A stretch of 64,000 bases of DNA from Acidiferrobacterales bacterium (GTDB lineage Bacteria > Pseudomonadota > Gammaproteobacteria > Acidiferrobacterales > SPGG2), in assembly GCA_046760105.1 (NCBI GenBank), contig JBHIDJ010000003.1, positions 19,718 to 83,717 on the forward strand, given 5' to 3'. Both the position numbers and the translations under genes were made by a program. This document shows, one piece after another, positions 8,642-54,842 of the stretch. The notes beneath the pieces are model-generated. The model did no database searches. It had not been told where the DNA came from and saw only the letters and a program-made list of their open reading frames with translations. Position 1 is the stretch's first letter. Each line of letters opens with the position of its first letter.

Positions 8642-8799
8642 AAACAAATGTGAAATAACGTTCCTCATCACAAGCTGCTTTAGCTAACCTTTGGCAGGGC
8701 ACGGGAATAACGTCGGGAACGATGATAAACACGGCTGGAACCCGCCTTGAGAAACGGTCCGATTCAGAAATATAGCTAACGATAGGGGAGAAAAGCTCT

Positions 8800-10833
<2,034 letters not shown>

Positions 10834-16701: not shown

Positions 16702-16940
16702 CTTCGTGCTCTATTGGTAGGCCTTCCGGGTATTTAAACCGGCCACGGTTAGGCGCTAGATCGAACCTTTTACAAGACCTTTTTAAGTATAACTAACACC
16801 TGTTGTGACGGCTGCCTAGGTGTGTGCGCGCGCCGGACGCAGGCATATCGGCGAGCGACGGATCTAGATGGTTAGAGTCGATAGCGGTAGGCTATGTGTT
16901 TGCGCAGTAATCAGCGTCTACAGCCGATCATGGTTTCACC

Positions 16941-17630: not shown

Positions 17631-17665
17631 ACACTGAGGCACCTTAAGAACGACCCTATAGGCGA

Positions 17666-32197: not shown

Positions 32198-34096
32198 TTA
32201 ACGGCCAACGCGCTTGCGCGGTCGGGAATCAGGAGTGCTCTCGCTATCGTGGAGGTCCGTCTCGCCGATGAAATCCTCGAGCTCCTTGATGGTCGACTCA
32301 ATGGCACCTACCTCGGATTGCCCGGATTCCTGCGATTCCTGCTCGGGTTTGACAAGCCCCTCGGCGATCGTCAGTTCCTTCGTGTTCGTTTCCGCGGGCC
32401 CCGGGTTCACCACGGGCTTAGCTGGCGATTGTTCGGCGTTCGGGTTCAGTCGCGGACGCCAGGGTGAATCCTCTAGCCAACGCGAGAAATCTTGGGCACT
32501 CAAAGGCCGGCTTATGTATTCACCTTGCGCGGCTTCACAACCCTGTTTTTCCAGTTGCGCAAACGCCTGCTCGCTTGACGTGCCCTCACCGATGACCTCC
32601 AGGCCGAGGTTATGGGCGAGATCGATGGTGGCACGCACAATCTTGGCATGCTTGGCGTTTTGGATCATGTCCATGACAAAGGACTTGTCGATCTTTATCT
32701 CCTGCACCGGCAGTTTACTGAGATATGACAACGATGAGTAACCGGTGCCAAAATCATCGATCGAAAGCCGCACGCCCATGTCGGCCAGCCTTGTCAGGAT
32801 CTGTAACGCGCGATCTTGGTCTACCATGATGCTGGTCTCGGTGATTTCGAGGATCAGCCGCTCAGCGGGGACGCCTTGCGCGGCGAGCAACCCCGCGATG
32901 AGATCGGGGAGCTCAAGATCAAGCAGCCCCTGGGGTGACATGTTGAAGGCGACACCGATATCCAAGCCCGCCCGGGCCCAGCTGCACTGCTGCTGAAGGC
33001 CATGGTTGAGTACCCACATGGTCAACGGCTTTATCAGGCCGGTGCGTTCCGCCAAAGGAATAAAGTCATCGGGCGGCATGAGATCATGTTGGGGATGCTG
33101 CCAGCGCACCAACGCCTCGACTTCCGTAACTTGCTTGGTCTTTATGGTGACCTTCGGTTGATAGTGCAAGACCAGTTCGTCAGTCTCGATCGCGTGGCGT
33201 AGCTCTCCCATGAGCGTCAGTCGATGGGGGCTGTGTTTATCAAGCCGCGGATCGTAGACGACGTAACCGCTTTTTTCCTGCTTCGCCATATACATAGCGA
33301 CGTCCGCCCGCTGCAGCAGGGTGTCGGGATCCGGACCATGCTCAGGGAAGACCGCAATACCGATACTGGCCTGTACATCCAGCTTTAGCCCTTCCAGCGC
33401 AAACGGTGTTTGCAACGCCTTGCCGATGTTACGCGCTACCTGCATAGCCTCCTTAACTACCGATATTTTTGGCAACAAGATCGCAAACTCATCACCACCA
33501 AGCCGTGCAACGGTAAAAGTATCCTGGATTGTTCCTTGCAGGCGTGCCGCCACCTGCTTCAGCACGCGGTCACCACTGAAATGGCCAAGCGTGTCGTTGA
33601 TCTCCTTGAACCGATCCAAGTCCATGACGAGAATCGCCAGGTGGGTTTTGTCATGCTGGGCGGCGTTTAACGCCTGTTCCAGGCGGTCCAGCAATAGCAC
33701 ACGATTAGGCAGGTCAGTCAGGTGATCATGGGTGACATCGTGCATCGCCTGCTGCTCGATCGCCGTTGTCTGCGCCCGCAGCTCGCTCGTCTGGTCAACG
33801 ACCAGGGCACTGGCCTCAAAGGCCATAACCGACCCGATGTATTGGCCCCAGATCGCGAAGAAAAACGGCATGCCGTCCAATAGCCACAGTGCCCCGTTCG
33901 TCCTCTGAGCCTCGATGATCCCGGTGAGAGTGACGCCGCCTGTTTGGTAATAGCTCACGAGCGCAGTGGCAATGACGATCGCCGCGCACGCGATCGTCAC
34001 GCCATAAACGGCATACTTGTTCGCCTTGCCTTTGAGCAGCTGGACGTTGCTAGATAAACTTTGGCTCGCTGTCAGCGCCACTCGTAAATTCTCCAC
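32198..34096 (-). CDS. Membrane-anchored GGDEF-EAL protein (diguanylate cyclase / c-di-GMP phosphodiesterase)
   Basis: Two or three N-terminal TM helices, an intact RLGGDEF active-site motif, an EVEALVRW EAL motif and DDFGTGYSS. A ~110-aa acidic low-complexity C-terminal tail follows. Confidence 0.9.
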   Translation of the reverse strand: MENLRVALTASQSLSSNVQLLKGKANKYAVYGVTIACAAIVIATALVSYYQTGGVTLTGIIEAQRTNGALWLLDGMPFFFAIWGQYIGSVMAFEASALVVDQTSELRAQTTAIEQQAMHDVTHDHLTDLPNRVLLLDRLEQALNAAQHDKTHLAILVMDLDRFKEINDTLGHFSGDRVLKQVAARLQGTIQDTFTVARLGGDEFAILLPKISVVKEAMQVARNIGKALQTPFALEGLKLDVQASIGIAVFPEHGPDPDTLLQRADVAMYMAKQEKSGYVVYDPRLDKHSPHRLTLMGELRHAIETDELVLHYQPKVTIKTKQVTEVEALVRWQHPQHDLMPPDDFIPLAERTGLIKPLTMWVLNHGLQQQCSWARAGLDIGVAFNMSPQGLLDLELPDLIAGLLAAQGVPAERLILEITETSIMVDQDRALQILTRLADMGVRLSIDDFGTGYSSLSYLSKLPVQEIKIDKSFVMDMIQNAKHAKIVRATIDLAHNLGLEVIGEGTSSEQAFAQLEKQGCEAAQGEYISRPLSAQDFSRWLEDSPWRPRLNPNAEQSPAKPVVNPGPAETNTKELTIAEGLVKPEQESQESGQSEVGAIESTIKELEDFIGETDLHDSESTPDSRPRKRVGR

Positions 34097-34430
34097 TAAT
34101 ACCTAAACTATCAGGGCGCCCGGCCAATGGCATGGCTCGACCGATACCGCGAACTGCCCTGTAACTCCCTCGCTTATTTAGATTCGATTCGCCCGATTGT
34201 CTAGGCCGAGGTCGGCGAGCAGTGGTCTCCTCCGGGCCGTCGGGCCCGACTCTATGATGAGTTTAATCGGAGGCCAGAGAGCGGAATAACTCAGCACCCA
34301 CTTAGGTAAGCGTAGACCATAGGAAAGCGCGATGGAACCGCACTCGCCTGGCAGCTCGTGGTCGATACGCGCTGCCTGTCACCCCGCTAAGTTACTGAAA
34401 ATTATTGAAAATCCGTAGTGGGCGGAAACG

Positions 34431-36257
34431 TCAGAATCCAAAAAGCTTCACCACGCCTACGCTGAGGGCCGGCACAAACGTGATAATCAAGACGCCAACC
34501 AGCGACAGCAGAAAGAAGGGGGCAGACGCCCAGCAGATCTCCAGAAGCGGTCGTTCAAAACGGAAAGCAGCCAGAAAGAGGTTCATGCCGACCGGCGGTG
34601 TCAAGTATCCAAGTTGCATGTTGGCAAGAAATACGATTCCCAGATGTACCGGATCGACACCAAAGGCCATGGCGACCGGAAGGATTAAAGGCACGATCAC
34701 GACGAGCGCTGAGAAAATGTCTAGCAGGCATCCTGCTATCAGAAGGAAACCATTAAGCGCAAGCAAGAACAGCCATGGTGACTCGATCGCCGACTGAACC
34801 CACTCCGTCGCCAATGTCGGCACATCCGCGAAAATAAGGTAGTTGGTGAGTCCCATGGCAGTCGCCAGGATAATCATGATGCCACCAATCATGACCGCGG
34901 CGTCCACCAGTAGCCGAGGTAGATCGTGCCGCACACTGAGTTCACGGTGGACCAGGAATTCCAAGAGCAGTGTATAAACGGCGGTCAGACCAGCCACCTC
35001 CACCAGCGTCGCATAACCCGAAAAAATGCCAAACAAGATTGCGACCGGTAACAGCACCTCGTACTTCGCCTCCCGGATCGCCGCTAACGCCGCACGCCCG
35101 TTAAATCGACTACGACCCCCCGGGATAAGCCAACCTGCGTGAACAGCGTAAACCGCAAACATGACGATCAATAAGAATCCCGGCAGCAGTCCGGCGAGAA
35201 ACAATCGATCGATCGGGGTGTGCGACGATACACCGTAGAGAATTATCAGCAGACTCGGCGGCAACAGGATGCCGAGGCTCCCCGAGGCAGTTAGCGCTCC
35301 CATCGAAAAGCGCTCGCGGTAGCCCTCGCGTATGAGCACGGGCAGGAGCAGTCCTCCAAGCGCCAGGATGGTGACACCGGAGCCACCGGTGAACGTGGTA
35401 AAGAAGGCACACACACCAATGCTGGCGATGGCTGTACCCCCGGGGATCCAGCCGAACAGCGCATGGAACAGATGCGCCAGACGATCAGACGACTTTCCCT
35501 CGGCCAATATGGTGCCTGCCAGGGTAAACAACGGTATGGTGGGTAATATCGGATTGGATGCAATGCGATACGCCTCCACCGGGATCGAGGCGAGTGGCAC
35601 CGCATCGACAAAAAACAGTAGGCTCGCGGCGGCCCCCAAGATGACAAATATCGGCGCACCGGCGAGCGCTGCCATCAAAATTACGCATACGCCCGGTAGC
35701 AGTAACAACCCTCGGCTTTCCTCCGGCCAAAAGGCAAAACCGACGACCAACAGCGTCATCGCCACCGCAACAATTCGCCCCCAATACCTGCCCGGCGTCT
35801 GCCATAGGAAACGCAGGCCGATGACTGCAAACCCGACAGGCATAATAACCTCGGCGACCCACTGCGGAATCAGACCACCTAGGGTAGTGGCCACCGCGCG
35901 ATCGACCCTCACCATGTCCAACGAGGCCCAAGCCAGCAGCAGCGCAACTGCCGTTGCCATGGATCCCGCGATAACGCTAGCGGCGGTCCGCCACCGTCCC
36001 CGCAGAAAGGATGCGAATCCCAGCGCCAGATGCTTTCCCCGCTTTGCCGCTACCATGGCGCCTAGGAACGCGACCCAAAGCGTTAAGTGACGAACATAGT
36101 CGATCGAACCCGGGACTCCGATGCCAACCAGGGCACGTCCGACGACTTCGATGATGGGAAGCAGGACGATACCCAGTAACGCCAGGGCTGTGGCCGTATT
36201 CTCTGCCTCGTACCACAAGGACTGGGTAGCCAGGCTTGCCTTGCGCACCCAGCTCAC
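34431..36257 (-). CDS. TRAP transporter fused small+large permease (DctQ-DctM fusion)
   Basis: 608-aa polytopic protein. The N-terminal ~160 aa are DctQ-like and the remainder DctM-like. It lies adjacent to a DctP-type binding protein gene. Confidence 0.88.
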   Translation of the reverse strand: MSWVRKASLATQSLWYEAENTATALALLGIVLLPIIEVVGRALVGIGVPGSIDYVRHLTLWVAFLGAMVAAKRGKHLALGFASFLRGRWRTAASVIAGSMATAVALLLAWASLDMVRVDRAVATTLGGLIPQWVAEVIMPVGFAVIGLRFLWQTPGRYWGRIVAVAMTLLVVGFAFWPEESRGLLLLPGVCVILMAALAGAPIFVILGAAASLLFFVDAVPLASIPVEAYRIASNPILPTIPLFTLAGTILAEGKSSDRLAHLFHALFGWIPGGTAIASIGVCAFFTTFTGGSGVTILALGGLLLPVLIREGYRERFSMGALTASGSLGILLPPSLLIILYGVSSHTPIDRLFLAGLLPGFLLIVMFAVYAVHAGWLIPGGRSRFNGRAALAAIREAKYEVLLPVAILFGIFSGYATLVEVAGLTAVYTLLLEFLVHRELSVRHDLPRLLVDAAVMIGGIMIILATAMGLTNYLIFADVPTLATEWVQSAIESPWLFLLALNGFLLIAGCLLDIFSALVVIVPLILPVAMAFGVDPVHLGIVFLANMQLGYLTPPVGMNLFLAAFRFERPLLEICWASAPFFLLSLVGVLIITFVPALSVGVVKLFGF

Positions 36258-36270
36258 GAGATCAGGTCTT

Positions 36271-37305
36271 TCAATTCGAGGACTTTGTAGCGCCTAGACG
36301 CTTCGCGCGAAACTCGTCACGCAGTCTAAGCACTTCGTCGAAAGATCCGGCCGGGACGATCTTGCCCCGAATGTCGGGATAGACCGATGTCGTTAACTCC
36401 TGCCATTCCTCGTAAGCGTCGGGCGGAACCGAGACCACCTGCAGACCGCGTTTGACCATCGCTCGAATCGCGTCTTGTTCTAACTGCCGAACCCTGTCGC
36501 GCAGCCGCAACCCGGCTTCGCGCGCTATTTGCGCCAACTTGGGTCTTAGGTCCGACGGAATTTTAGACCAGGCCCTTGTGCTGATAACGGTTCCACCGGT
36601 CAGTGGGGCCCACCTCATATCCGTCATTGAACCCGTAAACGCAAACCACTGATTCGCCAATGCCGCAAGCGGCGGAGCCTGATATGCCGTAATCATGCCG
36701 GTCTGAAGCGCTGGCAAAATGTCGTGCGACGCCAGCGGCACAGGTTTGAATCCGAGTTTCTTCCAAAGCTCCTCCGTCTCGGTGGTTTCAGCCGCGGCCC
36801 ACACAAACAGTTTTTGCTTCTTAAGATCATCTGGGCGCTGCACTGGGGACTTCGTAAAAAAGTGCACCCACCCCGCATCTCCCCAATTGAGCACGACGAA
36901 GCCTTTTTCTCGCAGGGCCTTTTCCATGGTTTTCGCTAACCCGGCCTGCACGTAGTCCAACTCTTCGTACGAAGCAAAAGCCAACGGGATATGCAGGGCC
37001 TTAGCCGACGGATCCACGATGCTAAGACCCACGGTCGAGACGGTGGCGGCATCGAGTTGCCCAATGCGGATCCGGCGCATAATGTCGCTTTCATCGCCGA
37101 GGGTGCCCGCATAAATCTTCAGCCGGACTTTGCCATCTGATGCTTCCGTCCACTTCTCATCGATCTCGGTCAGATACTCGTACCAAGTCGAGTCCTTGGG
37201 TACAACCGTCGCAAGTTTGACCACCACTGTCCGTGCACTCGCCTCAGCGACAAAAAGCGCCATACACATGGCCGCAAAGACTATCCGTTTAAGTCTCATA
37301 CTCAC
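36271..37305 (-). CDS. TRAP transporter substrate-binding protein (DctP/TatP-type)
   Basis: 344 aa with a signal peptide (MCMALFVAEASA) and periplasmic SBP-like sequence. A 4-nt overlap with the upstream TatT-like gene suggests translational coupling. Confidence 0.85.
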   Translation of the reverse strand: MSMRLKRIVFAAMCMALFVAEASARTVVVKLATVVPKDSTWYEYLTEIDEKWTEASDGKVRLKIYAGTLGDESDIMRRIRIGQLDAATVSTVGLSIVDPSAKALHIPLAFASYEELDYVQAGLAKTMEKALREKGFVVLNWGDAGWVHFFTKSPVQRPDDLKKQKLFVWAAAETTETEELWKKLGFKPVPLASHDILPALQTGMITAYQAPPLAALANQWFAFTGSMTDMRWAPLTGGTVISTRAWSKIPSDLRPKLAQIAREAGLRLRDRVRQLEQDAIRAMVKRGLQVVSVPPDAYEEWQELTTSVYPDIRGKIVPAGSFDEVLRLRDEFRAKRLGATKSSN

Positions 37306-38276
37306 TCCCCAATGAAAAAATCGTCGATTCGAAACATTAACACTTGCGCCCGCCTCTGCGCGATCAGGTTTGCCAGCCGATACTCAGGGGCTTTATCGGC
37401 GTTGAAGCCCAGGGCCTGCTGCAAAAGCGTTTTGAATTCCCGGCGATTCTGCATCTGTACCGAAACGGACTCTGCTAGCGACACCAATGGACTTACCTGT
37501 TGGTCATTGGCGAGTTCCATGGCACGCTGAAAGTGTTCGCGCGCTTTTTCCACACTGCCGCCCTGTGCGCTAGAGCGTCCACCCTCAAAGGCAATCAGAA
37601 ATTGATGGATTGCCCCTTGATTAAAGCTTTCGTCCAACTCCAAGCAGCGCTGAATCAACGGCCCGATTAAATTCAGATCAGCGACTAAATCCATATCTTG
37701 TTTATCTGCAGATATCGCCGCGCTCCACGATACCGCCGCCCAATAAAGCTCTGGAACATGTTTTGGCTTAAAGCGCGCAAGCGCGGATGTCGGATCCTGC
37801 CTCAGCTTTTCCACAAGGTCTGGCTCACGCAAATCCAACGCGCGTAAGGCGTAGTCACGGCCTCTGAGATAGAGCCGTTTCGCCCGTTGGCGAAGCTCGC
37901 GCGCACGGCGACGATCCGTTTCCTCCAATTCGAAAGCCTGGAAATCCACGTAGGCATAGGCGTATTGCGTAAAGCCGCTTGCCGCCGCAACCAGCAACCC
38001 GTGATGATCAGGGACTTCAGTAAGCAAACCTTCCATGGTCTTCAAACCGAAGGGCAGGGCATCGCCAATAAGCTCGATGTCGTCGTCAGATGCGTATACG
38101 GTTCCGGTTTCTGCTAACACGTTGCCCACCCGGTTGGCCGCGAACTTCCTTACCGAGCACCCCGAAGTCATAACCAGGACAAAAACGAGGAAAACCACCG
38201 TCCACAGCGGCCGCCTATCGGTCGTCCCCGTGATCGTTGGTGTGGGAAATATTGGTTGCGAGATACTTGTGATCAT
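37302..38276 (-). CDS. TRAP-associated TPR lipoprotein, TatT family
   Basis: Lipobox VMTSGC. The region GDALPFGLKTMEGLLTEVPDHHGLLVAAASGFTQYAYAYV resembles what I recall of TatT-family proteins. All-helical TPR-like remainder. The gene order T-P-QM matches Treponema tatT-tatP-tatQM. Confidence 0.7.
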   Translation of the reverse strand: MITSISQPIFPTPTITGTTDRRPLWTVVFLVFVLVMTSGCSVRKFAANRVGNVLAETGTVYASDDDIELIGDALPFGLKTMEGLLTEVPDHHGLLVAAASGFTQYAYAYVDFQAFELEETDRRRARELRQRAKRLYLRGRDYALRALDLREPDLVEKLRQDPTSALARFKPKHVPELYWAAVSWSAAISADKQDMDLVADLNLIGPLIQRCLELDESFNQGAIHQFLIAFEGGRSSAQGGSVEKAREHFQRAMELANDQQVSPLVSLAESVSVQMQNRREFKTLLQQALGFNADKAPEYRLANLIAQRRAQVLMFRIDDFFIGE

Positions 38277-38405: not shown

Positions 38406-39947
38406 CTACAGCTGGTTCTTGAACAGCAGTGCGAATAACTGATAAAAGCGCAGCTTGACAATCCTGCCAGACTTGGCGCGCGGAAAGCGACTGTCCTCGC
38501 CAATGGCTTTACCATCAGGACCTATTAACCACGCATTCGCCAGGTGCATGTCCATCGACACGCGCAATTGGCGCGCGAGCACTTCATCATGGGCGGCAAC
38601 CGCCAGCTCGGTATTCAAGAATTGTGAACGTGGATCGATATTAAAATTTCCGATAATGGCGATTGTGTTATCGATGACTACCGATTTTGCATGGAGCATC
38701 TTTGGGCCTTTGTACTCCCAAATCTCCAAACCCAGCCGCACTAAATCTGCTTTCTTCCCTTCGTAACCTCCTTGGGCGAAGAAATTCTGGGTCGATGCCA
38801 ATGAGTTGGTCAGCACACGTACTTGAACACCGCGATCGATCGCCCGCATGAACGCCGCCTTAGCGCTCTTAGAAAGAACAAGATAAGGCGATTCAATAAT
38901 AATGGATGATTTCGCGGAGTCTACATAGCGCAGAAACGCATCGAAGGTTCCAGGGTCCTTGCCTTTACGGCCCACTGGATCGTGGAAAAAACGTATATCG
39001 GTTACGTCTCGCTGTCCCGCAGACCAATCAGTGGCCGGATTGAGATGAACAAGCGTATTCTGGCTGAGATCTGCCCGGTGCCAGTCCAACAGCGCCGCTG
39101 CTTCTTGCAGTGCTTTGGCAGCGCGAATCTGTGACTGCTCACAGCGTTCGTATGAATGCCCATTCCTCGATTCGTCACATTGTTGAGGCAAGAATTCCGG
39201 ATCATGCGGTCCAAGCGCGGCGTCGCTAACTTCTTGGCTATTCCACAACCGCATGAAGTAACGGGAGGTCGCTTCGACTACCTTGCCGGCAACATACACG
39301 TCGCGGTCGACGTAAGCCCTTTCGACGTAACTCTTTTCGGTAACACCAAACCACGGATTCTCAAGATTGCGCCCGCCAATCAACATTTCGCGACCATCGA
39401 CAAGAATTAGCTTGTCGTGTAGCCGCCGATTGAACCAGCCGAGTTTTGTGATACGCAAGGGGTGGTACTCCTTGATCGCTACGCCTTCTTGTATTAAATG
39501 CGCAAGGACCGGCTTAGAGATCTCGTTAAAGTACCCGTCAATAAGGAATCTGACTTTTACTCCTCGACGGGCCGCATCCCGCAGCAGAGCGAGATAGGAC
39601 AGCACCATCCGGTCCTCTGAGGCCCTGTAAAGCTCGATAAGGATTTCCTCCCGAGCCTGCTGAATCATATCCACACGCACCTGTGCCGCCTCTTGGTCTG
39701 CATCTATAATGCGAAATGTGTCGGCGCAGGTTGGATTGGGAAACCAAACGAAAGAAAGCACGACAAGTGCAACGAATGTCGAGGCTCTCAGACGAAAAAC
39801 GGTCTCTTGCATTAAGCGCGTGTGATCCACGGGCAGTTTAGTGTGCACGGAACCTGGCATCGGACTAACAGACCTAGAGCCTACCTGAGTGATACACGCG
39901 ACCGCAATAACGAGAGGGCGTCGGGCTTGGGGCTGCGAGGAGCACAC
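38406..39947 (-). CDS. Phospholipase D / cardiolipin-synthase-like family protein (two HKD motifs), probably secreted
   Basis: HDKLILVDG and LHAKSVVIDN HKD motifs. The likely native start is the ATG at 39812 (MQETVFRLRASTFVALVVLSFVWFPNPTCA, a signal peptide); the track ORF begins at a GTG at 39947. Confidence 0.85.
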   Translation of the reverse strand: MCSSQPQARRPLVIAVACITQVGSRSVSPMPGSVHTKLPVDHTRLMQETVFRLRASTFVALVVLSFVWFPNPTCADTFRIIDADQEAAQVRVDMIQQAREEILIELYRASEDRMVLSYLALLRDAARRGVKVRFLIDGYFNEISKPVLAHLIQEGVAIKEYHPLRITKLGWFNRRLHDKLILVDGREMLIGGRNLENPWFGVTEKSYVERAYVDRDVYVAGKVVEATSRYFMRLWNSQEVSDAALGPHDPEFLPQQCDESRNGHSYERCEQSQIRAAKALQEAAALLDWHRADLSQNTLVHLNPATDWSAGQRDVTDIRFFHDPVGRKGKDPGTFDAFLRYVDSAKSSIIIESPYLVLSKSAKAAFMRAIDRGVQVRVLTNSLASTQNFFAQGGYEGKKADLVRLGLEIWEYKGPKMLHAKSVVIDNTIAIIGNFNIDPRSQFLNTELAVAAHDEVLARQLRVSMDMHLANAWLIGPDGKAIGEDSRFPRAKSGRIVKLRFYQLFALLFKNQL

Positions 39948-40013: not shown

Positions 40014-40559
40014 ATGATATCAAGCAACTCCTGGTTACGAATATCGACCTTGTTGAGTCTCCTACTACCTATAGCGCAGGCAGGACCGCTGCACGATGCC
40101 GCAGAACGGGGAGACCTAGACCGGGCAAGAACGCTTATTGCCCAGGGTGCCAATGTCAACGCGCGGGACACAAATGCCGCCACACCGCTCCATTGGGCAG
40201 TCTACGGGGGTCACACGGCGCTCGCGCGATGGCTAATTGCGCAGGGCGCGGATGTCTACGCGAACGAAACACCGTTTTGCCCCACACCTCCGCAAGTTGC
40301 TGCGACCTTAAGTGACGATGCGTTAACGGCGTGGCTTGATCATCAGACCGCCCACATTAACGACAACACCCAAAACGGTGTCAGGCCGTTACACTGGGCT
40401 GCAGCCGGCGGCCACCTAGCCACGGTCGAGCTGCTGATTACTGAGGGCGCCAACATTAATGCAGAAACGGCCGAAGGCATCACCCCGTTGCAAACCGCCG
40501 CTGGTATGGGCCATGAGCACATCGTGAAGTTGCTACGACGGCATGGCGCCAAAGAATAA
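40014..40559 (+). CDS. Secreted ankyrin-repeat protein
   Basis: Signal peptide (LLSLLLPIAQA), then at least 4 ANK repeats (GANVNARDTNAATPLHWAVYGGH..., GANINAETAEGITPLQTAAGMGH...). Confidence 0.85.
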   Translation: MISSNSWLRISTLLSLLLPIAQAGPLHDAAERGDLDRARTLIAQGANVNARDTNAATPLHWAVYGGHTALARWLIAQGADVYANETPFCPTPPQVAATLSDDALTAWLDHQTAHINDNTQNGVRPLHWAAAGGHLATVELLITEGANINAETAEGITPLQTAAGMGHEHIVKLLRRHGAKE

Positions 40560-41139: not shown

Positions 41140-42135
41140 ATGGGCATCGACAAGAGCATCTGGCTTCCGGTAGCGGCGTTATTCAGTCCTGGCTTATCGC
41201 CCCGCACTTCGCGCGATAGCACGTGGGAGACGTTGATGGACGCCGGTACCATAGCCTACGAGCAAGGTCGCTACGCAAAAGCCGAGGAGCAGCTATGGGC
41301 CGCGCTCAAACGCGCCGAGACCTTTGGGCTTGCGGATCTGCGCGTCGTCACTAGCCTCAACAGCCTTGCCGAAGTCCATCGCGCGCAAGCTAAGTATACC
41401 GACGCGGAATCGCTCATTAAGCAAGCCTTGGCACTCCGCGAGAACACGTTCGGACCTGTCCATGCTGACGTGGCGGCTAGCCTCAACAACCTAGCGGAGC
41501 TCTTCCGAGCTCAGAGCAAACACGACGAGGCCAAATCGCTTCTCAAGCGTGCCGTATCCATTTATCAGAAGATCGTGGACACGGAACACCCTGATGTTGC
41601 CACAACCCTCAACACTCTGGCGCTCTGCTACCGTGATCAAGGCGAGCATGCTAAAGCAAAGTCATTGCTGAAAGACGCCTTAGCGATTCGGAAGAAGTCG
41701 CTGGGATCAAGACATCCGCGCGTCGCCACTACGCTCAACAATCTCGCGCTTTGTTACCGTGCCGAGGGTAACGACGCCAAAGCCGAGCCGCTGCTGAAGC
41801 AGGCTTTGAAGATCCGCGAGAAGACTCTCGGACCGCGGCATCCGCGCGTGGCCACCAGTCTCAACAATCTGGCGCAGCTCTATCGAACCCTGGGTCGACA
41901 CGGTGAGGCCGAGCGCCTATACAAGCGCGCCTTGAAGATTCTGGAGAAAGCAAAAGGAAGAAACCACGCAAAGGTGGCCAACGTCTTGGATAACTACGCC
42001 CACCTTTTGACAGACATGAAAAAACCGAAGCAGGCGGCAAAGCTTGTTGCTCGCGCAAAAATCGTTAGAAAAAAAATGGTGGATAGCGGTCCGTCAGTTG
42101 TTGGCCGTGGGCGCTACGTCCTCGGAAGTTTCTGA
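41140..42135 (+). CDS. Tetratricopeptide repeat protein (kinesin-light-chain-like TPR_10/12 repeats)
   Basis: Six or seven 42-aa repeats of the form HPxVATxLNNLAxLYRxQGxxxxAExLxKxAL. The start is uncertain (41140 or an internal Met). Confidence 0.85.
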   Translation: MGIDKSIWLPVAALFSPGLSPRTSRDSTWETLMDAGTIAYEQGRYAKAEEQLWAALKRAETFGLADLRVVTSLNSLAEVHRAQAKYTDAESLIKQALALRENTFGPVHADVAASLNNLAELFRAQSKHDEAKSLLKRAVSIYQKIVDTEHPDVATTLNTLALCYRDQGEHAKAKSLLKDALAIRKKSLGSRHPRVATTLNNLALCYRAEGNDAKAEPLLKQALKIREKTLGPRHPRVATSLNNLAQLYRTLGRHGEAERLYKRALKILEKAKGRNHAKVANVLDNYAHLLTDMKKPKQAAKLVARAKIVRKKMVDSGPSVVGRGRYVLGSF

Positions 42136-43541: not shown

Positions 43542-44324
43542 ATGTGCAGATTGCAGAGAAGAACAGCATCAACCATAGCGGAAGGTGAGGTGAAGGGTGA
43601 AGAATCAGGGAGAACTCTGCTGTTCAGCGGTCTCCTCCTGGGCACGCTCTATTTTTTTACTCCGTGCATAAGCCAGGCCACAGTCACGTACCATCATCAG
43701 GTGGCGGACAAGGCGCTACCTTCGCTACACGAAACAGGCCTCCTCGCGTATCGCTACAGTGAAGCCGACAAGGCAATAGAGCGCGGAAATTATGAGCAGG
43801 CTATCCATATCCTCCAGTTGCTAGCGAAACAGGGAGCCATGAAGTCCCAGTATGATCTAGGGGTCATGTATTACCATGGGCTTGGCGTTAAGCAAGACAA
43901 GGCCGAGGCCATGCGATGGAACCGTATGGCGGCCGAACAGGGGCACATAGCCGCGCAATACAACATGGGCATCGCCTATTCAACGGGGACAGGCGTCGAC
44001 CTAGACGCCGTTAAAGCTGCCGACTGGTGGCGCAAAGCCGCCCTTCAAGGCAGCACCGAGGCACAGTTTAATCTCGGTCTGATGTACGCCCAGGGTGACG
44101 GCGTGACCCAGAATATGATGCAGGCAGCCCGATGGTGGTACGAGGCAGCGACGCATGGCGATGCCGCTGCGCAGTATGCCCTCGGTCTCATGTTTGCCAG
44201 GGGCGATGGCGTTACCCAGAACCTCAACGAAGCGGCGAAGTGGTGGTATCTGGCAGCAAGCCAGGGATTTGAACGCGCCAAGAATGCCTTGAACAAGCTT
44301 CGCCTTATCGTGATACCGAAATAA
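43542..44324 (+). CDS. Sel1-like repeat (SLR) protein, probably secreted
   Basis: About five Sel1 repeats (AQYNMGIAYSTGTGV..D..KAADWWRKAA..G). A hydrophobic signal-like segment LLFSGLLLGTLYFFTPCISQA suggests the start may be downstream of 43542. The last 49 nt lie inside direct-repeat copy A. Confidence 0.85.
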   Translation: MCRLQRRTASTIAEGEVKGEESGRTLLFSGLLLGTLYFFTPCISQATVTYHHQVADKALPSLHETGLLAYRYSEADKAIERGNYEQAIHILQLLAKQGAMKSQYDLGVMYYHGLGVKQDKAEAMRWNRMAAEQGHIAAQYNMGIAYSTGTGVDLDAVKAADWWRKAALQGSTEAQFNLGLMYAQGDGVTQNMMQAARWWYEAATHGDAAAQYALGLMFARGDGVTQNLNEAAKWWYLAASQGFERAKNALNKLRLIVIPK

Positions 44325-44361: not shown

Positions 44362-44608
44362 ACGGAATCAGGGATTCCCTAATATAGAGGGTCACGGAAT
44401 CCTTGATTGACGCGGAGCCCGAAATCGGCGTTGATTTCATAGGACCAACGACTAGCAACAATAATAGCAATAGCGCGTTTTCCAGCGCCAAACGTCTCCG
44501 GGGAAGGGATCCCCAGCATGCACAGCCACAACGGCTCCGACAAGAAGCTACGGGGCTTTGGTCCGCCTCTGACGCAAATAGACGCATCCACCTGAGGGAG
44601 GGTCCAAC

Positions 44609-46315
44609 ATGAAAAACCTCCAAATAGTGCTGAACCTCACGCGCAACCACAATCGTTTCGCCAGCCAGAGCGTTGATCTGATCGCGTCAAACTCGTGGAT
44701 TAGCCAGTTCGCACGGCTCGCCATGACCTCCTCGCTGCCGAACAGCTACTGCATCGGTCTGCCGGGTAACCGCCTCTACGGCGGATGCACCTACATCGAC
44801 ATGATCGAACGGGAGATTTGTCGACTCGCCCGCGAACTGTTCCCGATGGAGCACGTGGTGTTGCAGTTCCTCTCAGGCATGCAGGCCAACATCGGTGCCT
44901 ACAACGCCGTACTCAAACGGGGTAATACTGTAATGGCTGCCCAGTTGAAGCACGGGGGCCACTACAGTCACAACCCGCAAGGCCCATTGCGCCTTTTTTC
45001 GGCAAAACTCGTGCCGGTGCCCTTCGACGACTCCTGTTACAACATCGACGTCGATGAGCTCGCCAAGTCGCTCGCAACGCAGAAGCCAAAGCTTCTTATC
45101 GTGGGCTGGAGCGAGTTTCTGTTCCCCCATCCGCTCCCTGAGATCCGCGCGCTGTGCGACAAGCACGGCGTTCGCTTGATGTACGACATGTCGCACGTTG
45201 CCGGGCTGATCGCTGGGAAAGTCTTCCAGCCCGATGCGACCAAGTATGCCGACATCGCCACCAGCTCAACCGGCAAGTCGCTGCACGCGCCCGACCACGG
45301 CATGGTCTTTTTCAACGACAAGTCGCTAGAGACGGGTGTCCTTGACGCCGTGATGCCCCTGCTTACTTCCAATACGCACCCACACGAGATGGCGGCACTC
45401 GGCGTTGCCTTTGCCGAGATGGTAGAGTTCGGCCGAGACTACGCCTTACAGGTCGTGCGCAACTCCAAGGCCCTGGGCCGTGCGCTCGAAGAGGAGGGGC
45501 TCAAAGTCCTTTATGCGCATCTAGACTATAGCGAGAGCCATACCGTGCTCGTGGAATACGTCGCCTCGAGCGTTGCCGTGGCCCTGCTGGACCGGACCGG
45601 TATTCTGTGCAACACGTGCCCACTTCCATGGGATCCCCCACGTACCGAGACGGGTCTGCGGCTCGGGACTCAGGTCCTAACACGGCGCGGGATGCGCGAG
45701 CCCGAAATGCAGGTGATCGCCCAAGGGATCGCACGGGTACTTCTGCATGGCGAACACCCGGATCGCGTGGCCTACGAGTTTGTCAAGCCACTCGCCCAGC
45801 GATTCGATCGAACGGTGTACTCGTTTGACTTTCACTTCCCGCTGCAGCAGGACTGGTATGGCGCCCCGTACGAAGGCTACCGCGCGGAAAATGTCGACGA
45901 TGTAATCCACGAGCTCGTACCGTTCGCAAACTGCACACCCGAGCAGATCCGATCACTCGCCGAACAGCTTACTCTCGTCGTTATCGACAAGGAACAAGTG
46001 TTATTCGAGACGGGCGATGCCTCGGATAGCGTGTACTTCATCAGTGAGGGAATCGTGGAGATCATGGACCGGTCCGGTAACACGGATGTTGTGATCGGGT
46101 CTCTCGGAGAAGGCAAGCACTTCGGGGAGCTTGGTGTGATGAAAGGCATCAACCGTACCATGACTGCACGAGCACAGCCTCGCACGCGTCTGTTCCGCAT
46201 GAAGGCCGCAAACTTCGAAGAGCTGCTCAAAGACGTCCTACCGCTCAGACAGTACTTCGAGGATTACGTCCACATCATCGAAGAACAAAACCGCTGGCGA
46301 CAGCGCGCCATGTAA
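44609..46315 (+). CDS. SHMT-fold PLP-dependent enzyme fused to a C-terminal cyclic-nucleotide-binding (CAP_ED) domain
   Basis: aa 1-~430 carry GlyA-like motifs: LIASNSW, LYGGC, SGMQAN, HGGHYSH, DMSHVAGLIAG, SSTGKSL (Lys223). aa ~434-545 form a cNMP domain with the cassette FGELGV...RTMTARA. A GAGGGAGGG Shine-Dalgarno precedes the ATG. Confidence 0.85.
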   Translation: MKNLQIVLNLTRNHNRFASQSVDLIASNSWISQFARLAMTSSLPNSYCIGLPGNRLYGGCTYIDMIEREICRLARELFPMEHVVLQFLSGMQANIGAYNAVLKRGNTVMAAQLKHGGHYSHNPQGPLRLFSAKLVPVPFDDSCYNIDVDELAKSLATQKPKLLIVGWSEFLFPHPLPEIRALCDKHGVRLMYDMSHVAGLIAGKVFQPDATKYADIATSSTGKSLHAPDHGMVFFNDKSLETGVLDAVMPLLTSNTHPHEMAALGVAFAEMVEFGRDYALQVVRNSKALGRALEEEGLKVLYAHLDYSESHTVLVEYVASSVAVALLDRTGILCNTCPLPWDPPRTETGLRLGTQVLTRRGMREPEMQVIAQGIARVLLHGEHPDRVAYEFVKPLAQRFDRTVYSFDFHFPLQQDWYGAPYEGYRAENVDDVIHELVPFANCTPEQIRSLAEQLTLVVIDKEQVLFETGDASDSVYFISEGIVEIMDRSGNTDVVIGSLGEGKHFGELGVMKGINRTMTARAQPRTRLFRMKAANFEELLKDVLPLRQYFEDYVHIIEEQNRWRQRAM

Positions 46316-46719: not shown

Positions 46720-47454
46720 CTACCAGCCTGCTGGCAGCTTTTTCTTGATAGTAATCCTCTTGTCTTCGACTCTTATATATCCACCCGTCGCAAGATCTTT
46801 CAAGATGCGGCTTACCATCTCCCTTGATGCCCCCACCATGTTAGCAATATCCTGCTGAGTTAACTTTTCGGAGATTACGAAATTGCCGTTTTCCGCTGTA
46901 GCGAGGTTTGATAATGTTCTCGCAACCCGTCCGTAGACGTCCCTTAGGGCGAGGCCTTTCACGTTATCAGTCAGCATCCGTATTCGATGCGTTAACTCCT
47001 TGATGAGGGTAATCGCAATATCGGGATTCTTGGCCAGACACTCCTTGAAATCGCTCTTCGAGATGATCGAAAACCTTGAGGGCTCCAACGTCATAACAGA
47101 TGCGGACCTGGGGGCGTCATCAAGTAACGCTATTTCGCCAAAGTACTCTCCTGGCCCTTCTATATCGAGGATGATTTCTCTTCCTTGCTCGTCACTCAGA
47201 AACACTTTCACTTTGCCCGTCAGAATAACGTAGAGCGAGTCAGTAGTATCCCCCTCATTGATGACGATGGTATTTCTTGGGAATGTCTTCGTGACTGCGT
47301 GGCCGGATACCGTCGCGAGATCCGCTTGTGCCAGGCTCGCAAAAAGCGGGATGCCCTCGAAGACGCCCCCCGTCTGCGCGGCGGTGAGACCCGTATACCG
47401 GACTGAATTGTAGCCCACCGTCGCTTGCGCTGCGCTCAGATTGCTGGTAGTCAC
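46720..47454 (-). CDS. Crp/Fnr-family transcriptional regulator with a cNMP-binding domain
   Basis: 244 aa. The cNMP cassette is FGEIALLDDAPRSASVMT (RS as in the E. coli CRP cAMP site). The HTH is TQQDIANMVGASREMVSRILKDL, retaining the CRP R-E-x-x-x-R DNA-contact pattern (CRP: SRETVGR). Confidence 0.9.
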   Translation of the reverse strand: MTTSNLSAAQATVGYNSVRYTGLTAAQTGGVFEGIPLFASLAQADLATVSGHAVTKTFPRNTIVINEGDTTDSLYVILTGKVKVFLSDEQGREIILDIEGPGEYFGEIALLDDAPRSASVMTLEPSRFSIISKSDFKECLAKNPDIAITLIKELTHRIRMLTDNVKGLALRDVYGRVARTLSNLATAENGNFVISEKLTQQDIANMVGASREMVSRILKDLATGGYIRVEDKRITIKKKLPAGW

Positions 47455-51029: not shown

Positions 51030-53291
51030 ATGTTGCGATTGCTTTCGATCCGAGACCGACTCTTCCTTCTGCTGATGCTGCTCGTCGCGTCGCTCGTCTT
51101 CACCAACCTCCTGCTGATCAACCAGACGAGAAACCTCGAGCACTCCATCCGTCAACAGGCGCACAACATCGATCGCATGGTGAAAGTCGATGCAGCGGTC
51201 AAGACCTTCGGCGACCTTAAGTACTGGCTGACTGCCTGGGCACTTAACGTCGACGCCCATGCCGAGAAGCGTGCCAAGGACGCCCGCGACCTCCTAAACG
51301 GACAGCTATCCGAGCTCAAACCGGATCTGCCGGAGGTGGTCGCCGATGTGCCTGGGCAGGCGGCCGATCTGGTGAGCGAGACAAGCGCGGCCGCGGAAGC
51401 GTTCGCGCGTGATAACTATGCCGTTGCCAAGGGCCTGATCCGCAGGGGGCATGGGCATGTTTTGGCGGTTGATGCCAAGCTTTCAACGGTGGTGGGTAGC
51501 CTCCAAGAAAAAGCTCAGAGTGCTGCCGCGAGAGCGTTGCGGGAGACTTCGCAGGATGTTCAAACCGCCTTATGGATCGTCGTGCTGGTGAGCCTCGTGG
51601 CCGCCACCTTGACCTTTCTAATCGTGCGCTCGGTGGTCATGCCGCTGCGACAAGTGGGCGGGGTGATAGGCGCTATGAGCGCTGGCGAGATGGACGTCCC
51701 TCTGCCGCCAGCGAGCCGTGATGAGATCGGGGATATGGTGCAGGTGCTCACCCTGTTCCGGGAGAACGTCGCACGACGCAGGGCAATCGAACAGGACTTG
51801 CGCGAGGTGCTCGATGCCATCGAATACGGCATCCTGTTCATGGATTCGAATTTGCAGATTCGCATCGATAACCGCGCCTACCGCGAAATCTGGGGTATCC
51901 CCGAGAGCTTTCTCGCCCAGAAGCCCCACCTGCGGGAGTTAATGGAGTACAACCGCGAACACGAGATCTACGATGTCCCCGAGGGTGGGTGGGAGAACTA
52001 CGTCGAAGGCCGTATCGACTCCATTCAAAAGGGGAGTATTCCCCCGACGGAGCTGCACCGCGCCGACGGCAAGATAATCCAGTATCAGTGCGTCGCCCTT
52101 CCAGACGGCGGTCGGATGCTCACGTATTTCGACATTACCGAGATCAAGCGCGCCGAGCAGGCGCTGCGCGAGAGCGAGGAGCGTTACGCCCTGGCGATGA
52201 TGGGCGCCAATGAAGGGCTGTGGGACTGGGACTCGCGCGCCAATGAGATTTACGTCTCCCCGCGCTTCAAGACGATCTTCGGGATGGAGACGGAGGCCCT
52301 CAAAATCACGCCAGCCGACTGGGAGGCCTGCATCCATCCGGATGACCGTGCCCACTACCGCCAGGCATTTCAGGCGCACTTGCGCGGTGACACCGAGTTC
52401 TACCAATCCGAATGCCGCGTGCTGTTGCCCGATGGAGCCCAGCGCTGGGTCCGGATGCGCGGCATCGGCCTGCGCGATGAACGCGGCCGGGTATATCGCA
52501 TGGCCGGATCCGTCGGCGATATCACTGCGGGCAAGCAAGCTGAAATCGAGCTACGCCAAGCCAAGGATGAGGCCATGCAAGCGAGCAACGCCAAAACCCA
52601 GTTCCTCGCCAACATGAGCCATGAGCTGCGCACACCTCTGAACGCCATCTTGGGTTATACGGAGCTGATCCTGGACCAGGTATACGGCGAGGTGCCCGAC
52701 CAGACCCGGGATGTTCTCGAGCGCGTGGAGCAGAGCGGCCGCCACCTACTTGGGCTCATCAACGACGTTCTCGACCTCTCCAAGATCGAGGCAGGTCGCT
52801 TCACGCTGCCCCTCGCCGACTATTCCATGCAGGAGGTGGTCGGGAACGTCATTAGCACAGTCGAATCATTGGGGGCGGAAAAAAATCTGGCCCTGAACGT
52901 TTCGCTTCCACCTGATCTGCCTATCGGAAGGGGGAACGAACAACGCATCACCCAGGTCCTGCTGAATCTCATCGGGAACGCAATCAAGTTTACTGACGTC
53001 GGGGAGGTTTCAGTAGAGGTAACGGTATCCGACGAAAACTTTGTCGTTTCCGTGTCCGACACCGGGATCGGCATATCGGAAGCGGATCAAGCGGAGATTT
53101 TCAAAGAATTTCAGCAGGCGGACAATTCCGTCACACGCGAACGTGGGGGCACAGGCCTCGGTCTCGCCATCGCCAGGCGCATGATCGAAATACAGGGGGG
53201 GCGCGTGTGGGTTCAGTCGACCCGGGGCAAGGGTTCGACCTTTTCGTTCTCACTGCCCATCCGGGTCGAGCCACAGCCGGAGGCGACATGA
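51030..53291 (+). CDS. Sensor histidine kinase (2 TM + periplasmic helical domain, HAMP, 2x PAS, HisKA, HATPase_c)
   Basis: H-box FLANMSHELRTPLNAILGYTE, N-box LLNLIGNAIKFT, G-boxes DTGIGI and GGTGLGLAI. Two PAS-like blocks occupy aa ~270-520. Confidence 0.9.
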   Translation: MLRLLSIRDRLFLLLMLLVASLVFTNLLLINQTRNLEHSIRQQAHNIDRMVKVDAAVKTFGDLKYWLTAWALNVDAHAEKRAKDARDLLNGQLSELKPDLPEVVADVPGQAADLVSETSAAAEAFARDNYAVAKGLIRRGHGHVLAVDAKLSTVVGSLQEKAQSAAARALRETSQDVQTALWIVVLVSLVAATLTFLIVRSVVMPLRQVGGVIGAMSAGEMDVPLPPASRDEIGDMVQVLTLFRENVARRRAIEQDLREVLDAIEYGILFMDSNLQIRIDNRAYREIWGIPESFLAQKPHLRELMEYNREHEIYDVPEGGWENYVEGRIDSIQKGSIPPTELHRADGKIIQYQCVALPDGGRMLTYFDITEIKRAEQALRESEERYALAMMGANEGLWDWDSRANEIYVSPRFKTIFGMETEALKITPADWEACIHPDDRAHYRQAFQAHLRGDTEFYQSECRVLLPDGAQRWVRMRGIGLRDERGRVYRMAGSVGDITAGKQAEIELRQAKDEAMQASNAKTQFLANMSHELRTPLNAILGYTELILDQVYGEVPDQTRDVLERVEQSGRHLLGLINDVLDLSKIEAGRFTLPLADYSMQEVVGNVISTVESLGAEKNLALNVSLPPDLPIGRGNEQRITQVLLNLIGNAIKFTDVGEVSVEVTVSDENFVVSVSDTGIGISEADQAEIFKEFQQADNSVTRERGGTGLGLAIARRMIEIQGGRVWVQSTRGKGSTFSFSLPIRVEPQPEAT

Positions 53292-53672: not shown

Positions 53673-54842
53673 GTGAGAACGCCACCGCAGATCCTCATCG
53701 TGGACGACAACCCGACGAACGTGGATATCCTTCAGGCACGCCTCACCGTGCACGGCTATGACATTCTCACGGCGAGCGACGGCGAGCAAGCTGTAAGCAT
53801 CGCCAGAGAAAGGCAGCCAGATCTCATTTTGTTGGATGTCATGATGCCAAAAATGGATGGCATCGAGGTCTGTCGACACCTCAAAGGCGATCCCTCGCTG
53901 CCGTTTATGCCGATTATCCTGGTCACAGCTAAGTCGGATTCGAAGGACGTGGTCGCCGGTCTGGAGGCGGGTGCCGAGGAGTATCTGACCAAGCCCGTAG
54001 ACCAACAGGCGCTCGTGGCAAGGGTCAAGTCGATGTTGAAGATTAAGGACCTCCACGATACGACCCAAGAGCAGGCGGCCCAGCTCTCGCAGTGGAACCG
54101 GACGCTCGAGGAGCGCGTCAAGGAGCAACTCGCAGAGCTGGAGCGCATGAGCCAGCTGAAGCGATTCTTCTCTCCGCATCTCGCGAAGCTCATCGTGTCC
54201 TCCGGAGACAAGAGCTTCCTCAAAAGCCACCGACAGGATATCACCGTGCTCTTCTGTGACCTCCGCGGGTACACGACATTCGCGACGAGCGCCGAGCCCG
54301 AAGAGGAAATCCAGCTGCTGGACGAGTACCACAAGGTCGTCGGTTCCTTGGTATTCGGCTTCGAGGCAACCCTGGAGCACTACGCCGGGGATGGGATCAT
54401 GGCGTTCTTCAACGACCCGATACCCTGTCCTTCTCCGGCGGTGCGCGCCATCCGGATGGCATTGGCGATGCAACGGGAGGTCGGCGAGTTGCTCGAGGGG
54501 TGGCGGAAACGCGGCTTCGACTTGGGGTTCGGCGTGGGGATTGCCATGGGGTACGCCACGTTGGGACAGATCGGTTTCGAAGGCCAATTTCACTACGCCG
54601 CCGTCGGCTCTGTGTCTAACCTTGCGGCGCGCCTTTGCGACAAGGCCCAAAGCGGGCAGATCCTGATCTCCCAGCGGGTCTACGCGGAACTCGAGGGGCT
54701 GGCAGAGGCTGAACCGGTCGGAGAGCTCGCTCTCAAGGGATTCGAGAAGCCCTTACCCGCCTATAACGTGCTCGCAATAAAGGCCGATGAATCTCCTCAC
54801 GAGGAAACTCAGTCTCCGGGGTCGAGCGACGGGAGGCGGTGA
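53673..54842 (+). CDS. Response regulator with a class III adenylate/guanylate cyclase output domain
   Basis: REC (ILIVDDNPTN, ILLDVMMPKMDG, VTAKS, LTKP), a coiled-coil linker, then CYCc (ITVLFCDLRGYTTFA..., GDGIMAFFNDP, GIAMGYATLGQIGF..., NLAARL). Confidence 0.88.
   Translation: MRTPPQILIVDDNPTNVDILQARLTVHGYDILTASDGEQAVSIARERQPDLILLDVMMPKMDGIEVCRHLKGDPSLPFMPIILVTAKSDSKDVVAGLEAGAEEYLTKPVDQQALVARVKSMLKIKDLHDTTQEQAAQLSQWNRTLEERVKEQLAELERMSQLKRFFSPHLAKLIVSSGDKSFLKSHRQDITVLFCDLRGYTTFATSAEPEEEIQLLDEYHKVVGSLVFGFEATLEHYAGDGIMAFFNDPIPCPSPAVRAIRMALAMQREVGELLEGWRKRGFDLGFGVGIAMGYATLGQIGFEGQFHYAAVGSVSNLAARLCDKAQSGQILISQRVYAELEGLAEAEPVGELALKGFEKPLPAYNVLAIKADESPHEETQSPGSSDGRR

Follow-up and report, generated by a model that had tools for sequence, protein, structure and literature searches.

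A gene at positions 44609..46315 (+) of the 64,000-nucleotide stretch of Acidiferrobacterales DNA analysed here (hereafter the window; GenBank assembly GCA_046760105.1, contig JBHIDJ010000003.1, positions 19,718 to 83,717 of the forward strand) encodes an enzyme domain resembling serine hydroxymethyltransferase (SHMT), of the type that uses pyridoxal 5'-phosphate (PLP), joined to a cyclic-nucleotide-binding (CNB) domain. Taking the whole chain of evidence together, we lean towards the view that the product is a folate-independent PLP enzyme acting on an α-amino acid and gated by the binding of a cyclic nucleoside monophosphate (cNMP). A metabolic enzyme would here probably be switched directly by cAMP or cGMP.

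It is almost certain that 44609-46315 is one real gene. It starts with ATG, runs uninterrupted through 568 codons to a stop, and encodes in order the SHMT-like PLP domain, a linker, the CNB domain and a C-terminal helix. A Shine-Dalgarno-like GAGGGAGGG (44594..44602, +) lies 6 nt before the ATG. The single open reading frame (ORF), its strong Shine-Dalgarno and a number of motifs had been described in an earlier reading made without database searches (below, the sequence-only reading), and all of them were confirmed, the motifs in the translation: LIASNSW (residues 24-30), SGMQAN (89-94), HGGHYSH (115-121), DMSHVAGLIAG (193-203) and SSTGKSL (219-225) in the catalytic part, and FGELGV (505-510) and RTMTARA (516-522) in the sensor part. 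The same reading had called the latter two a CAP-type phosphate-binding cassette, which proved to be conserved across the fused homologues, and had named a Pfam search as a check on the two domains. Both were supported by hidden Markov models (HMMs), with SHMT (PF00464) matched at residues 8-372 (E=2e-64; 218 bits vs a cut-off of 27) and cNMP_binding (PF00027) at residues 458-541 (E=7.3e-18; 64.8 bits vs 27.5). Weaker Pfam matches to other fold-type I PLP families were of the kind usual for any SHMT-fold protein, and the NCBIfam models for Pat (3.1e-09), family-2B encapsulin and CRP were matched by the C-terminus solely through its CNB domain.

The SHMT-fold (fold-type I) catalytic domain occupies residues 1-407 (44609..45829, +), as delimited by Pfam, phmmer and Foldseek. 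It is followed by a conserved aromatic linker at residues 408-432 (45830..45904, +; column counts; predicted local distance difference test (pLDDT) 83-93), and by the CAP/PKA-type CNB domain at residues 433-545 (45905..46243, +; Pfam PF00027). The protein ends in a helix, or “lid”, carrying Tyr549, Phe550 and Tyr553 (46244..46312, +; helix 544-567 in the structure model, and column counts).

The source is a metagenome-assembled genome (MAG), and the fusion could in principle have arisen as an artefact, through a chimeric assembly join or because a stop or frameshift separating two genes was missed. Against this, the continuous architecture recurs in independent assemblies of dozens of samples, with identity falling as low as 33-35%. 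The residues S405-F406-D407, which close the catalytic domain, and F410-P411 and W416 of the linker are conserved in the alignment columns of the fused homologues, and the linker was modelled with high confidence. Because its residues are conserved and it is modelled confidently, a chimeric join is excluded; chimera and frameshift were rejected, and we attach a negligible probability to an artefact of any of these kinds. The domain-architecture search in public and metagenomic proteins that the sequence-only reading had proposed showed instead a fusion that is real and recurrent. An identical protein (P0001; NCBI MFQ5936117.1/MFQ6021401.1) occurs on three contigs under two NCBI MAG accessions. 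NCBI (PGAP) assigns it to Acidiferrobacterales, under the generic name “aminotransferase class I/II-fold PLP-dependent enzyme”. About 40 further clusters at 90% identity share the SHMT and cNMP architecture at 47-79% identity (ENA, JGI, NCBI and Logan assemblies), and deeper fused lineages (P0071, P0146, P0147 and P0148) were found at about 34% identity (32-35%).

To compare the catalytic domain with characterised SHMT, 120 homologues were aligned with E. coli GlyA using MAFFT, the reference sequence having been verified as identical to PDB 1dfo. The clade to which the window protein belongs (P0001-P0072) comprises all fused proteins together with stand-alone bacterial members and members from diatoms and a bolidophyte. 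With E. coli numbering, and window residues in brackets, the clade has kept Ser35 (Ser27), Tyr55 (Tyr47), Tyr65 (Tyr57), His126 (His118), Asp200 (Asp193), His203 (His196), Lys229 (Lys223) and Arg363 (Arg351). The set that serves PLP, namely Lys229, Asp200, His126 and His203 along with Ser175 (Ser168), is family-invariant. The retained residues are those of the PLP site and of the α-carboxylate site.

Other positions are substituted in nearly every member of the clade: Glu36 by Asn, Glu57 by Ile, Ser99 by Met, Leu127 by Tyr, His228 by Gly, Ala232 by His, Arg235 by Asp, Gly236 by His, and Asn347 by Cys, Thr or Gln (Cys in the window protein). The SHMT acid-base Glu, which is E57 in E. coli and E53 in T. 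thermophilus, corresponds to Ile49 in the window protein (codon 44753..44755, +), and Ile or another non-acidic residue occupies this position throughout P0001-P0072. In the pairwise alignment with the SHMT of Methanocaldococcus jannaschii, YAEGLPG lies opposite YCIGLPG. The motif GKSLHAPDH (residues 222-230; 45272..45298, +), invariant in 37/37 fused homologues and across the clade, holds Gly222 for His228, the Schiff-base Lys223, a clade-specific His226, Asp229 for Arg235, and His230. Among the sequences examined, the signature SN[SA]W / Y-x-I-G / STGKSLHAPDH was confined to this clade.

The sequence-only reading had already seen that the Schiff-base Lys is kept while the His of THK is Gly, as the GlyA alignment bears out. 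It had also counted the Glu of SENF (E. coli E36) among the altered catalytic residues. The change, to Asn28, is genuine, but the catalytic role was misplaced: the catalytic Glu, whose loss is decisive, is E57 of YAEGYPG, here Ile49 of YCIGLPG. Besides this replacement, the losses of R235 (to Asp) and N347 (to Cys) had escaped it. Its suggestion of a reaction other than folate-dependent Ser/Gly interconversion gains support from a PLP set that is intact beside SHMT catalytic and folate residues that are replaced clade-wide.

The best solved relative of the catalytic domain is the archaeal M. jannaschii SHMT (4bhd/4uqv; 1.3e-79 by phmmer, aligned residues 14-407), with a Foldseek TM-score of 0.88 to 4uqv and 36-38% identity. 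The two proteins have in common the stacking His, the Asp to N1, the Schiff-base Lys, the carboxylate Arg, and the archaeal-style LPWD and SN loops. They differ in that the window protein has Ile49 for the catalytic Glu, Gly222 before the Lys, no pterin-contacting Asn, and Asp/His where SHMTs have Arg/Gln and then Gly/His; it also has about 160 extra C-terminal residues, which form the CNB domain. Arg235 is itself a residue of bacterial and eukaryotic SHMTs and is Gln in the archaeal ones. The next-closest sequences to the clade are archaeal-type SHMTs at about 40% identity, and Glu36, Glu57, His228 and Asn347 are retained there.

The possibility that the protein is nevertheless a genuine GlyA, dependent on folate or tetrahydromethanopterin and equipped with a regulatory CNB domain that would place one-carbon metabolism under cAMP control, has some evidence on its side. 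The strongest HMM and PDB matches are SHMTs, the JGI pipelines label relatives “glycine hydroxymethyltransferase”, and the NCBIfam SHMT naming model (NF000586) scored 333.3 bits against a cut-off of 335, a borderline miss by 1.7 bits. Set against these is the clade-wide replacement of E57 by Ile, H228 by Gly, R235 by Asp and N347 by Cys, when the nearest archaeal SHMTs keep E57, H228 and N347. A 2024 neutron and X-ray study described Glu53 of the T. thermophilus enzyme as an acid-base catalyst “conserved in all SHMT enzymes”, and Glu-to-Gln substitutions alone almost abolish catalysis that depends on tetrahydrofolate (PMC11323337). We consider a true GlyA very improbable. The catalytic Glu57, the His228 of T-H-K, Arg235 and the pterin-contacting Asn347, by which the SHMT family is recognised, are absent; because three defining residue features are lacking and the cut-off of the naming model was narrowly missed, the protein was not filed as an SHMT. 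The glycine hydroxymethyltransferase annotation given to some members is probably wrong. From the alignment we conclude with high confidence that the catalytic domain is SHMT-derived and not a canonical SHMT. It represents a distinct, uncharacterised catalytic subfamily that is shared by diverse bacteria and stramenopile algae.

Precedents exist for an SHMT fold that has abandoned folate chemistry, in favour of aldol chemistry with aldehyde exchange: the transaldolases ObiH/ObaG, LipK and the fluorothreonine transaldolase FTase. The C-terminal domain of FTase is of the aldolase-II type and not a CNB domain. The catalytic domain of the window protein might accordingly belong with ObiH, LipK and FTase among the L-threonine transaldolases and serve a natural-product pathway. 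Enzymes of this group have the SHMT fold and are routinely mis-annotated as SHMT (PMC10495429; PMC5490192), and the fluorothreonine-transaldolase model (TIGR04506) was matched at 9e-49. The score of that match, 166.7 bits, is however far under the cut-off of 650 and well under the SHMT score of 333. ObaG is only about 25% identical to bacterial SHMTs (PMC5490192), whereas the window protein is 36-40% identical to archaeal SHMTs, and the known transaldolases fall in a different clade. The two papers gave no residue-level rule applicable to the window protein. Within the window no biosynthetic-cluster genes flank the gene, whose neighbours encode repeat proteins, Crp, a methyltransferase and a solute-binding protein. 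We therefore hold a transaldolase of this kind to be quite improbable.

For the SHMT-derived, folate-independent enzyme that we prefer, the following course of catalysis can be proposed. The N-terminal ~400 residues are a fold-type I PLP domain descended from an archaeal-type SHMT. The enzyme most likely forms an external aldimine with an α-amino acid, since the Arg, Ser and Tyr that bind the carboxylate have been retained. Folate-independent chemistry at the Cα carbanion would most likely follow, of a retro-aldol, aldol, transaldol or related type. The His/Asp/His cluster beside the Schiff-base Lys may supply a relocated acid-base or polar site, and the hydrophobic replacements Ile49, Met91, Tyr119 and Trp30 may remodel the former pterin pocket.

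The closest solved relatives of the CNB domain are those of PKA RI-alpha/RII, PKG, HCN, SthK and the cAMP-sensing Bd1971. The phosphate-binding cassette FGELGVMKGINRTMTARA (residues 505-522; 46121..46174, +) can be aligned position by position with the PKA RI-alpha cassette FGELALIYGTPRAATVKA, with the ribose-contacting Glu (Glu507) and the phosphate-contacting Arg (Arg516) in place. Among the 37 fused homologues Gly506 is conserved in all, Glu507 in 36, and Arg516 and the preceding His504 in 35 each; the Gly-Glu and the Arg of the cassette are also kept in the fused lineages at 34% identity. In the C-terminal helix Phe550 is present in 37/37, and Tyr549 and Tyr553 are conserved. On these grounds the C-terminal domain likely binds a cyclic nucleotide.

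A domain of this fold need not sense a cyclic nucleotide. Sensor domains of the CRP/FNR superfamily bind other ligands too, as in CooA, NtcA and CprK, and the domain could respond to another small molecule, or serve oligomerisation or stability, in an enzyme outside second-messenger control. An atypical variety of residues follows the cassette Arg, and overall the domain is conserved less well than the enzyme domain (mean top-residue frequency 0.48 vs 0.73). The contacts to the ribose-phosphate, Gly506, Glu507 and Arg516, are on the other hand retained in 35-37/37 homologues and in the 34%-identity lineages. The domain has its best matches among genuine cAMP- and cGMP-binding domains, and a cyclase and a canonical Crp are encoded nearby. 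We consider this alternative unlikely. As the residue after the Arg varies, the affinity and specificity for cNMP are uncertain, and no call was made between cAMP and cGMP.

An AlphaFold2 monomer model, built on the 37-sequence alignment, reached a pLDDT of 91 and a predicted TM-score (pTM) of 0.91. A pTM of 0.91 would otherwise be hard to reach, so the domains are taken to be placed confidently relative to each other, and in the model both are packed rigidly. In a Foldseek search of the PDB no chain spanned both domains, and the TM-score normalised to the query was at most 0.67.

The ~135 C-terminal residues, which form the CNB domain, appear docked rigidly on the enzyme through the aromatic linker and the C-terminal helix. 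If the domain binds cNMP as proposed, binding of cAMP or cGMP at the cassette would reposition the hinge and the C-helix (lid). By analogy with the acetyltransferase Pat, this signal could pass through the aromatic linker to open or close the active site or to shift the dimer, and thus switch catalysis on or off.

Among known systems, the closest by fold and descent is archaeal SHMT, and the closest by working principle are Pat and Bd1971. In mycobacterial Pat (Rv0998 / MSMEG_5458) a cNMP domain is fused to a GNAT acetyltransferase, which is activated allosterically by cAMP. Both Pat and the window protein are bacterial enzymes fused to a CAP/PKA-type CNB domain, and the Pat-like combination of a CNB domain with a catalytic domain, a conserved linker and a lid was found here in the architecture, in the alignment columns and in the pTM of the model. 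The domain order is reversed, however, with the CNB domain at the N-terminus of Pat but at the C-terminus of the window protein; the catalytic partners are unrelated (GNAT vs PLP fold-type I), and the two share no homology beyond the CNB domain. Bd1971 of Bdellovibrio (6hq2/6hq3; CNB match 7.6e-09) combines a cAMP-sensing cNMP domain with an EAL phosphodiesterase. Its output is thus the breakdown of a second messenger, unlike that proposed for the window protein, a metabolic PLP enzyme. The principle of an enzyme-CNB fusion is already known from these two proteins, and the PLP partner alone is new. Literature searches for an SHMT-CNB fusion, or for any PLP-CNB fusion, gave no relevant paper, in agreement with the sequence-only reading, which knew of no described example.

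A further possibility is that the PLP domain is no longer an enzyme, and that it serves as a sensor or scaffold (a likeness to GabR/MocR-type proteins) in an adaptor that integrates an amino-acid signal with cNMP. Two unusual relatives bear on this. P0033 (744 amino acids, metagenomic, on a 2.9-kb contig) consists of an SHMT-like domain (residues 21-388), a cNMP_binding domain (473-556) and a GGDEF domain (585-735), a triple fusion which ties the same module to c-di-GMP synthesis and provides an extra output domain after the cNMP domain. In P0148 (555 amino acids, 32% identity, representative of a 50%-identity cluster) the Schiff-base Lys (SSTGGSAHAPERG), His196 and the HGGH segment with the stacking His are gone, yet the cNMP cassette and the linker remain; judged by these losses it probably represents a pseudoenzyme. 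By contrast, all PLP and carboxylate residues and the new His/Asp/His cluster are present in the window protein and in 37/37 close homologues. The window protein, at 568 residues, has no output domain besides the enzyme, and signalling partner domains are absent from the stand-alone members (~440 amino acids) and from the diatom members that share the active-site signature. For the window protein we give a pseudoenzyme adaptor little probability.

The reading of the window protein as a cNMP-gated PLP enzyme thus stands as the preferred one, and several points weigh against it. The residue after the cassette Arg varies between K, R, A and T (Thr here), where Ser, Thr or Ala is canonical. P0148, without its Schiff-base Lys, shows from its sequence that the architecture can persist without catalysis. 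Gene neighbourhoods are unconserved within the window protein's own subclade, and context gives no substrate here. Proximity to a cyclase was seen in only two loci, and class III cyclases are common.

The SHMT-like-cNMP fusion is rare and has so far come only from uncultured bacteria, in metagenomes and MAGs. When two family-specific peptide patterns were used to search 185,579 GTDB species genomes, five true relatives were found, all in MAGs, labelled Gemmatimonadales (two loci), “uncultured bacterium”, Chloroflexota and Deltaproteobacteria. When 1.84 billion cluster representatives were searched exhaustively with HMMER, the family collapsed to a handful of clusters at 50% identity, and the deeper fused lineages P0146, P0147 and P0148 emerged at 33-35% identity. 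In a neighbour-joining tree of the catalytic domain, which is a crude method, fused and stand-alone bacterial members (the latter ~410-450 amino acids) were interspersed, the deepest branch, P0071, was fused, and the stramenopile members formed a stand-alone clade of their own. The branching suggests an old fusion from which the sensor domain was later lost repeatedly.

Some members of the wider family were of interest in themselves. One 33-kb contig (L008) bears two paralogous SHMT-like-cNMP genes, at 8001-9656 and 16453-17656, about 7 kb apart. The stand-alone algal members P0063, P0065/P0139 and P0066 come from Amphora, Epithemia and Triparma, the last a bolidophyte and the others diatoms. 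They bear the same active-site signature (N36, I57, G228, D235 and H236), and those of Epithemia are encoded by two adjacent genes (KAL7576463 and KAL7576464). Five SHMT-like proteins of ~410-455 amino acids (P0078, P0083, P0102, P0149 and P0153), one of them from a Roizmanbacteria MAG, branch between the archaeal SHMTs and the fusion clade. They have kept Glu36 but have Tyr, Val or Cys in place of Glu57, Asn in place of His228, and Asp, Asn or Cys in place of Arg235, and may, on this sequence pattern, represent an intermediate or another neofunctionalised group.

In a subclade other than that of the window protein (P0021, P0030, P0032 and P0035) the fusion gene stands at the head of a conserved cluster. 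In 4/4 loci sampled from it, a GCS2-type carboxylate-amine ligase of 474 amino acids is encoded directly downstream of the fusion gene, followed in 3/4 by genes for a protein bearing two cNMP domains in tandem and for an EgtC-like class-II amidohydrolase (148.6 bits vs a cut-off of 218.65). With the fusion gene first, these clusters span 8001-13100 in L001, 8001-14529 in L002, which holds a second GCS2, 2241-7325 in L007 and 8001-11140 in L019. Gene order and sequence hint that in this subclade the amino-acid product of the enzyme may be ligated, e.g. gamma-glutamylated, and the clusters possibly represent an uncharacterised cNMP-linked pathway of the gamma-glutamyl type. The window holds no GCS2, tandem-cNMP or EgtC-like partners by tblastn, the sole matches being cNMP cross-matches to its Crp gene. 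In L013, from a Deltaproteobacteria MAG, the fusion gene shares its strand and a 4-kb stretch with an acyltransferase gene and a class III cyclase gene, the latter ~1.2 kb upstream of the fusion. Only transporters are found nearby at the Chloroflexota locus (L012). The contexts of stand-alone relatives are heterogeneous, and include a molybdopterin oxidoreductase, an ABC transporter with an amine oxidase, and CLIPPER proteins.

Some of the relatives' loci also encode other fusions. A cNMP domain is joined there to a CADD/heme-oxygenase-like domain (di-iron oxidase type) or to an Rce1/CPBP-type intramembrane protease (L003 6609-7775 and L004 5328-6494; L002 2888-4018). In these organisms the CNB domain therefore appears to be a plug-in regulator for several enzymes. 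In L003 the SHMT-like gene is followed directly by a gene for a GAF-sulfotransferase fusion.

In the window the gene appears monocistronic, with a gap of 284 nt upstream, after a Sel1-repeat gene, and of 404 nt to a convergent Crp-family gene. The latter (46720..47454, -; Pfam and translation) encodes cNMP_binding and HTH_Crp_2 domains with a canonical cassette, FGEIALLDDAPRSAS. It is not syntenic in any related locus and is regarded as context and not as a conserved partner. Further downstream, Pfam identified a HAMP-PAS-PAS histidine kinase (51030..53291, +), a possible upstream input to local cNMP production, and a response-regulator receiver fused to a class III nucleotidyl cyclase (53673..54842, +; Response_reg 4e-33, Guanylate_cyc 1.1e-16), a possible source of cNMP 7.4 kb from the fusion gene. 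The best match of the cyclase domain was the adenylate cyclase CyaB of P. aeruginosa (3r5g, 2.7e-30). On direct reading its substrate-specifying positions look non-canonical (LEHYAGD vs K-x-x-G-D or E-x-x-G-D), and for this reason no call was made on its nucleotide specificity. The links of the fusion gene to cNMP production through this cyclase and that of L013 are suggestive only. The downstream genes also include an S-adenosylmethionine-dependent methyltransferase and a family-5 solute-binding protein.

Upstream lies a run of eukaryote-like repeat proteins, with ankyrin (40014-40559), TPR_12/NPHP3-like (41140-42135) and Sel1 (43542-44324) repeats, beside a PLD-like protein (38406-39947, -). 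Sets of eukaryote-like repeat proteins are frequent in host-associated bacteria. Beyond the PLD-like gene, at 32198-38276 (-), a GGDEF-EAL protein (32198-34096) adjoins a TRAP set consisting of DctQM (34431-36257), DctP (36271-37305) and TAtT (37302-38276). Reverse tblastn showed no synteny between the window neighbours and the 18 related loci, including two loci of the window protein's own subclade.

Bacterial second-messenger control is mainly understood through transcription factors, kinases, channels and the enzymes of nucleotide turnover. To our knowledge, direct gating of a metabolic enzyme by cNMP has been shown for very few proteins, with the Pat acetyltransferase as the chief example. 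At its fullest, and here we are more tentative, our interpretation is that the window protein belongs to an ancient family that would provide the first PLP enzyme gated by a second messenger. An amino-acid metabolite would be made or cleaved only with cAMP or cGMP bound; the product would pass, in one subclade, to a GCS2-type ligase and an EgtC-like amidohydrolase encoded on the same transcript, and diatoms and other stramenopiles would use a form that lacks the sensor. The finding is clear-cut and somewhat surprising for specialists in PLP enzymes or cNMP signalling, and it overturns no principle. If true, a cNMP-gated PLP enzyme would carry the principle of direct gating into amino-acid metabolism, and would also offer a PLP biocatalyst scaffold that is naturally switchable by a ligand. 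The reaction of the SHMT-like subfamily, once found, would correct the annotations of its members and may reveal a new metabolite.

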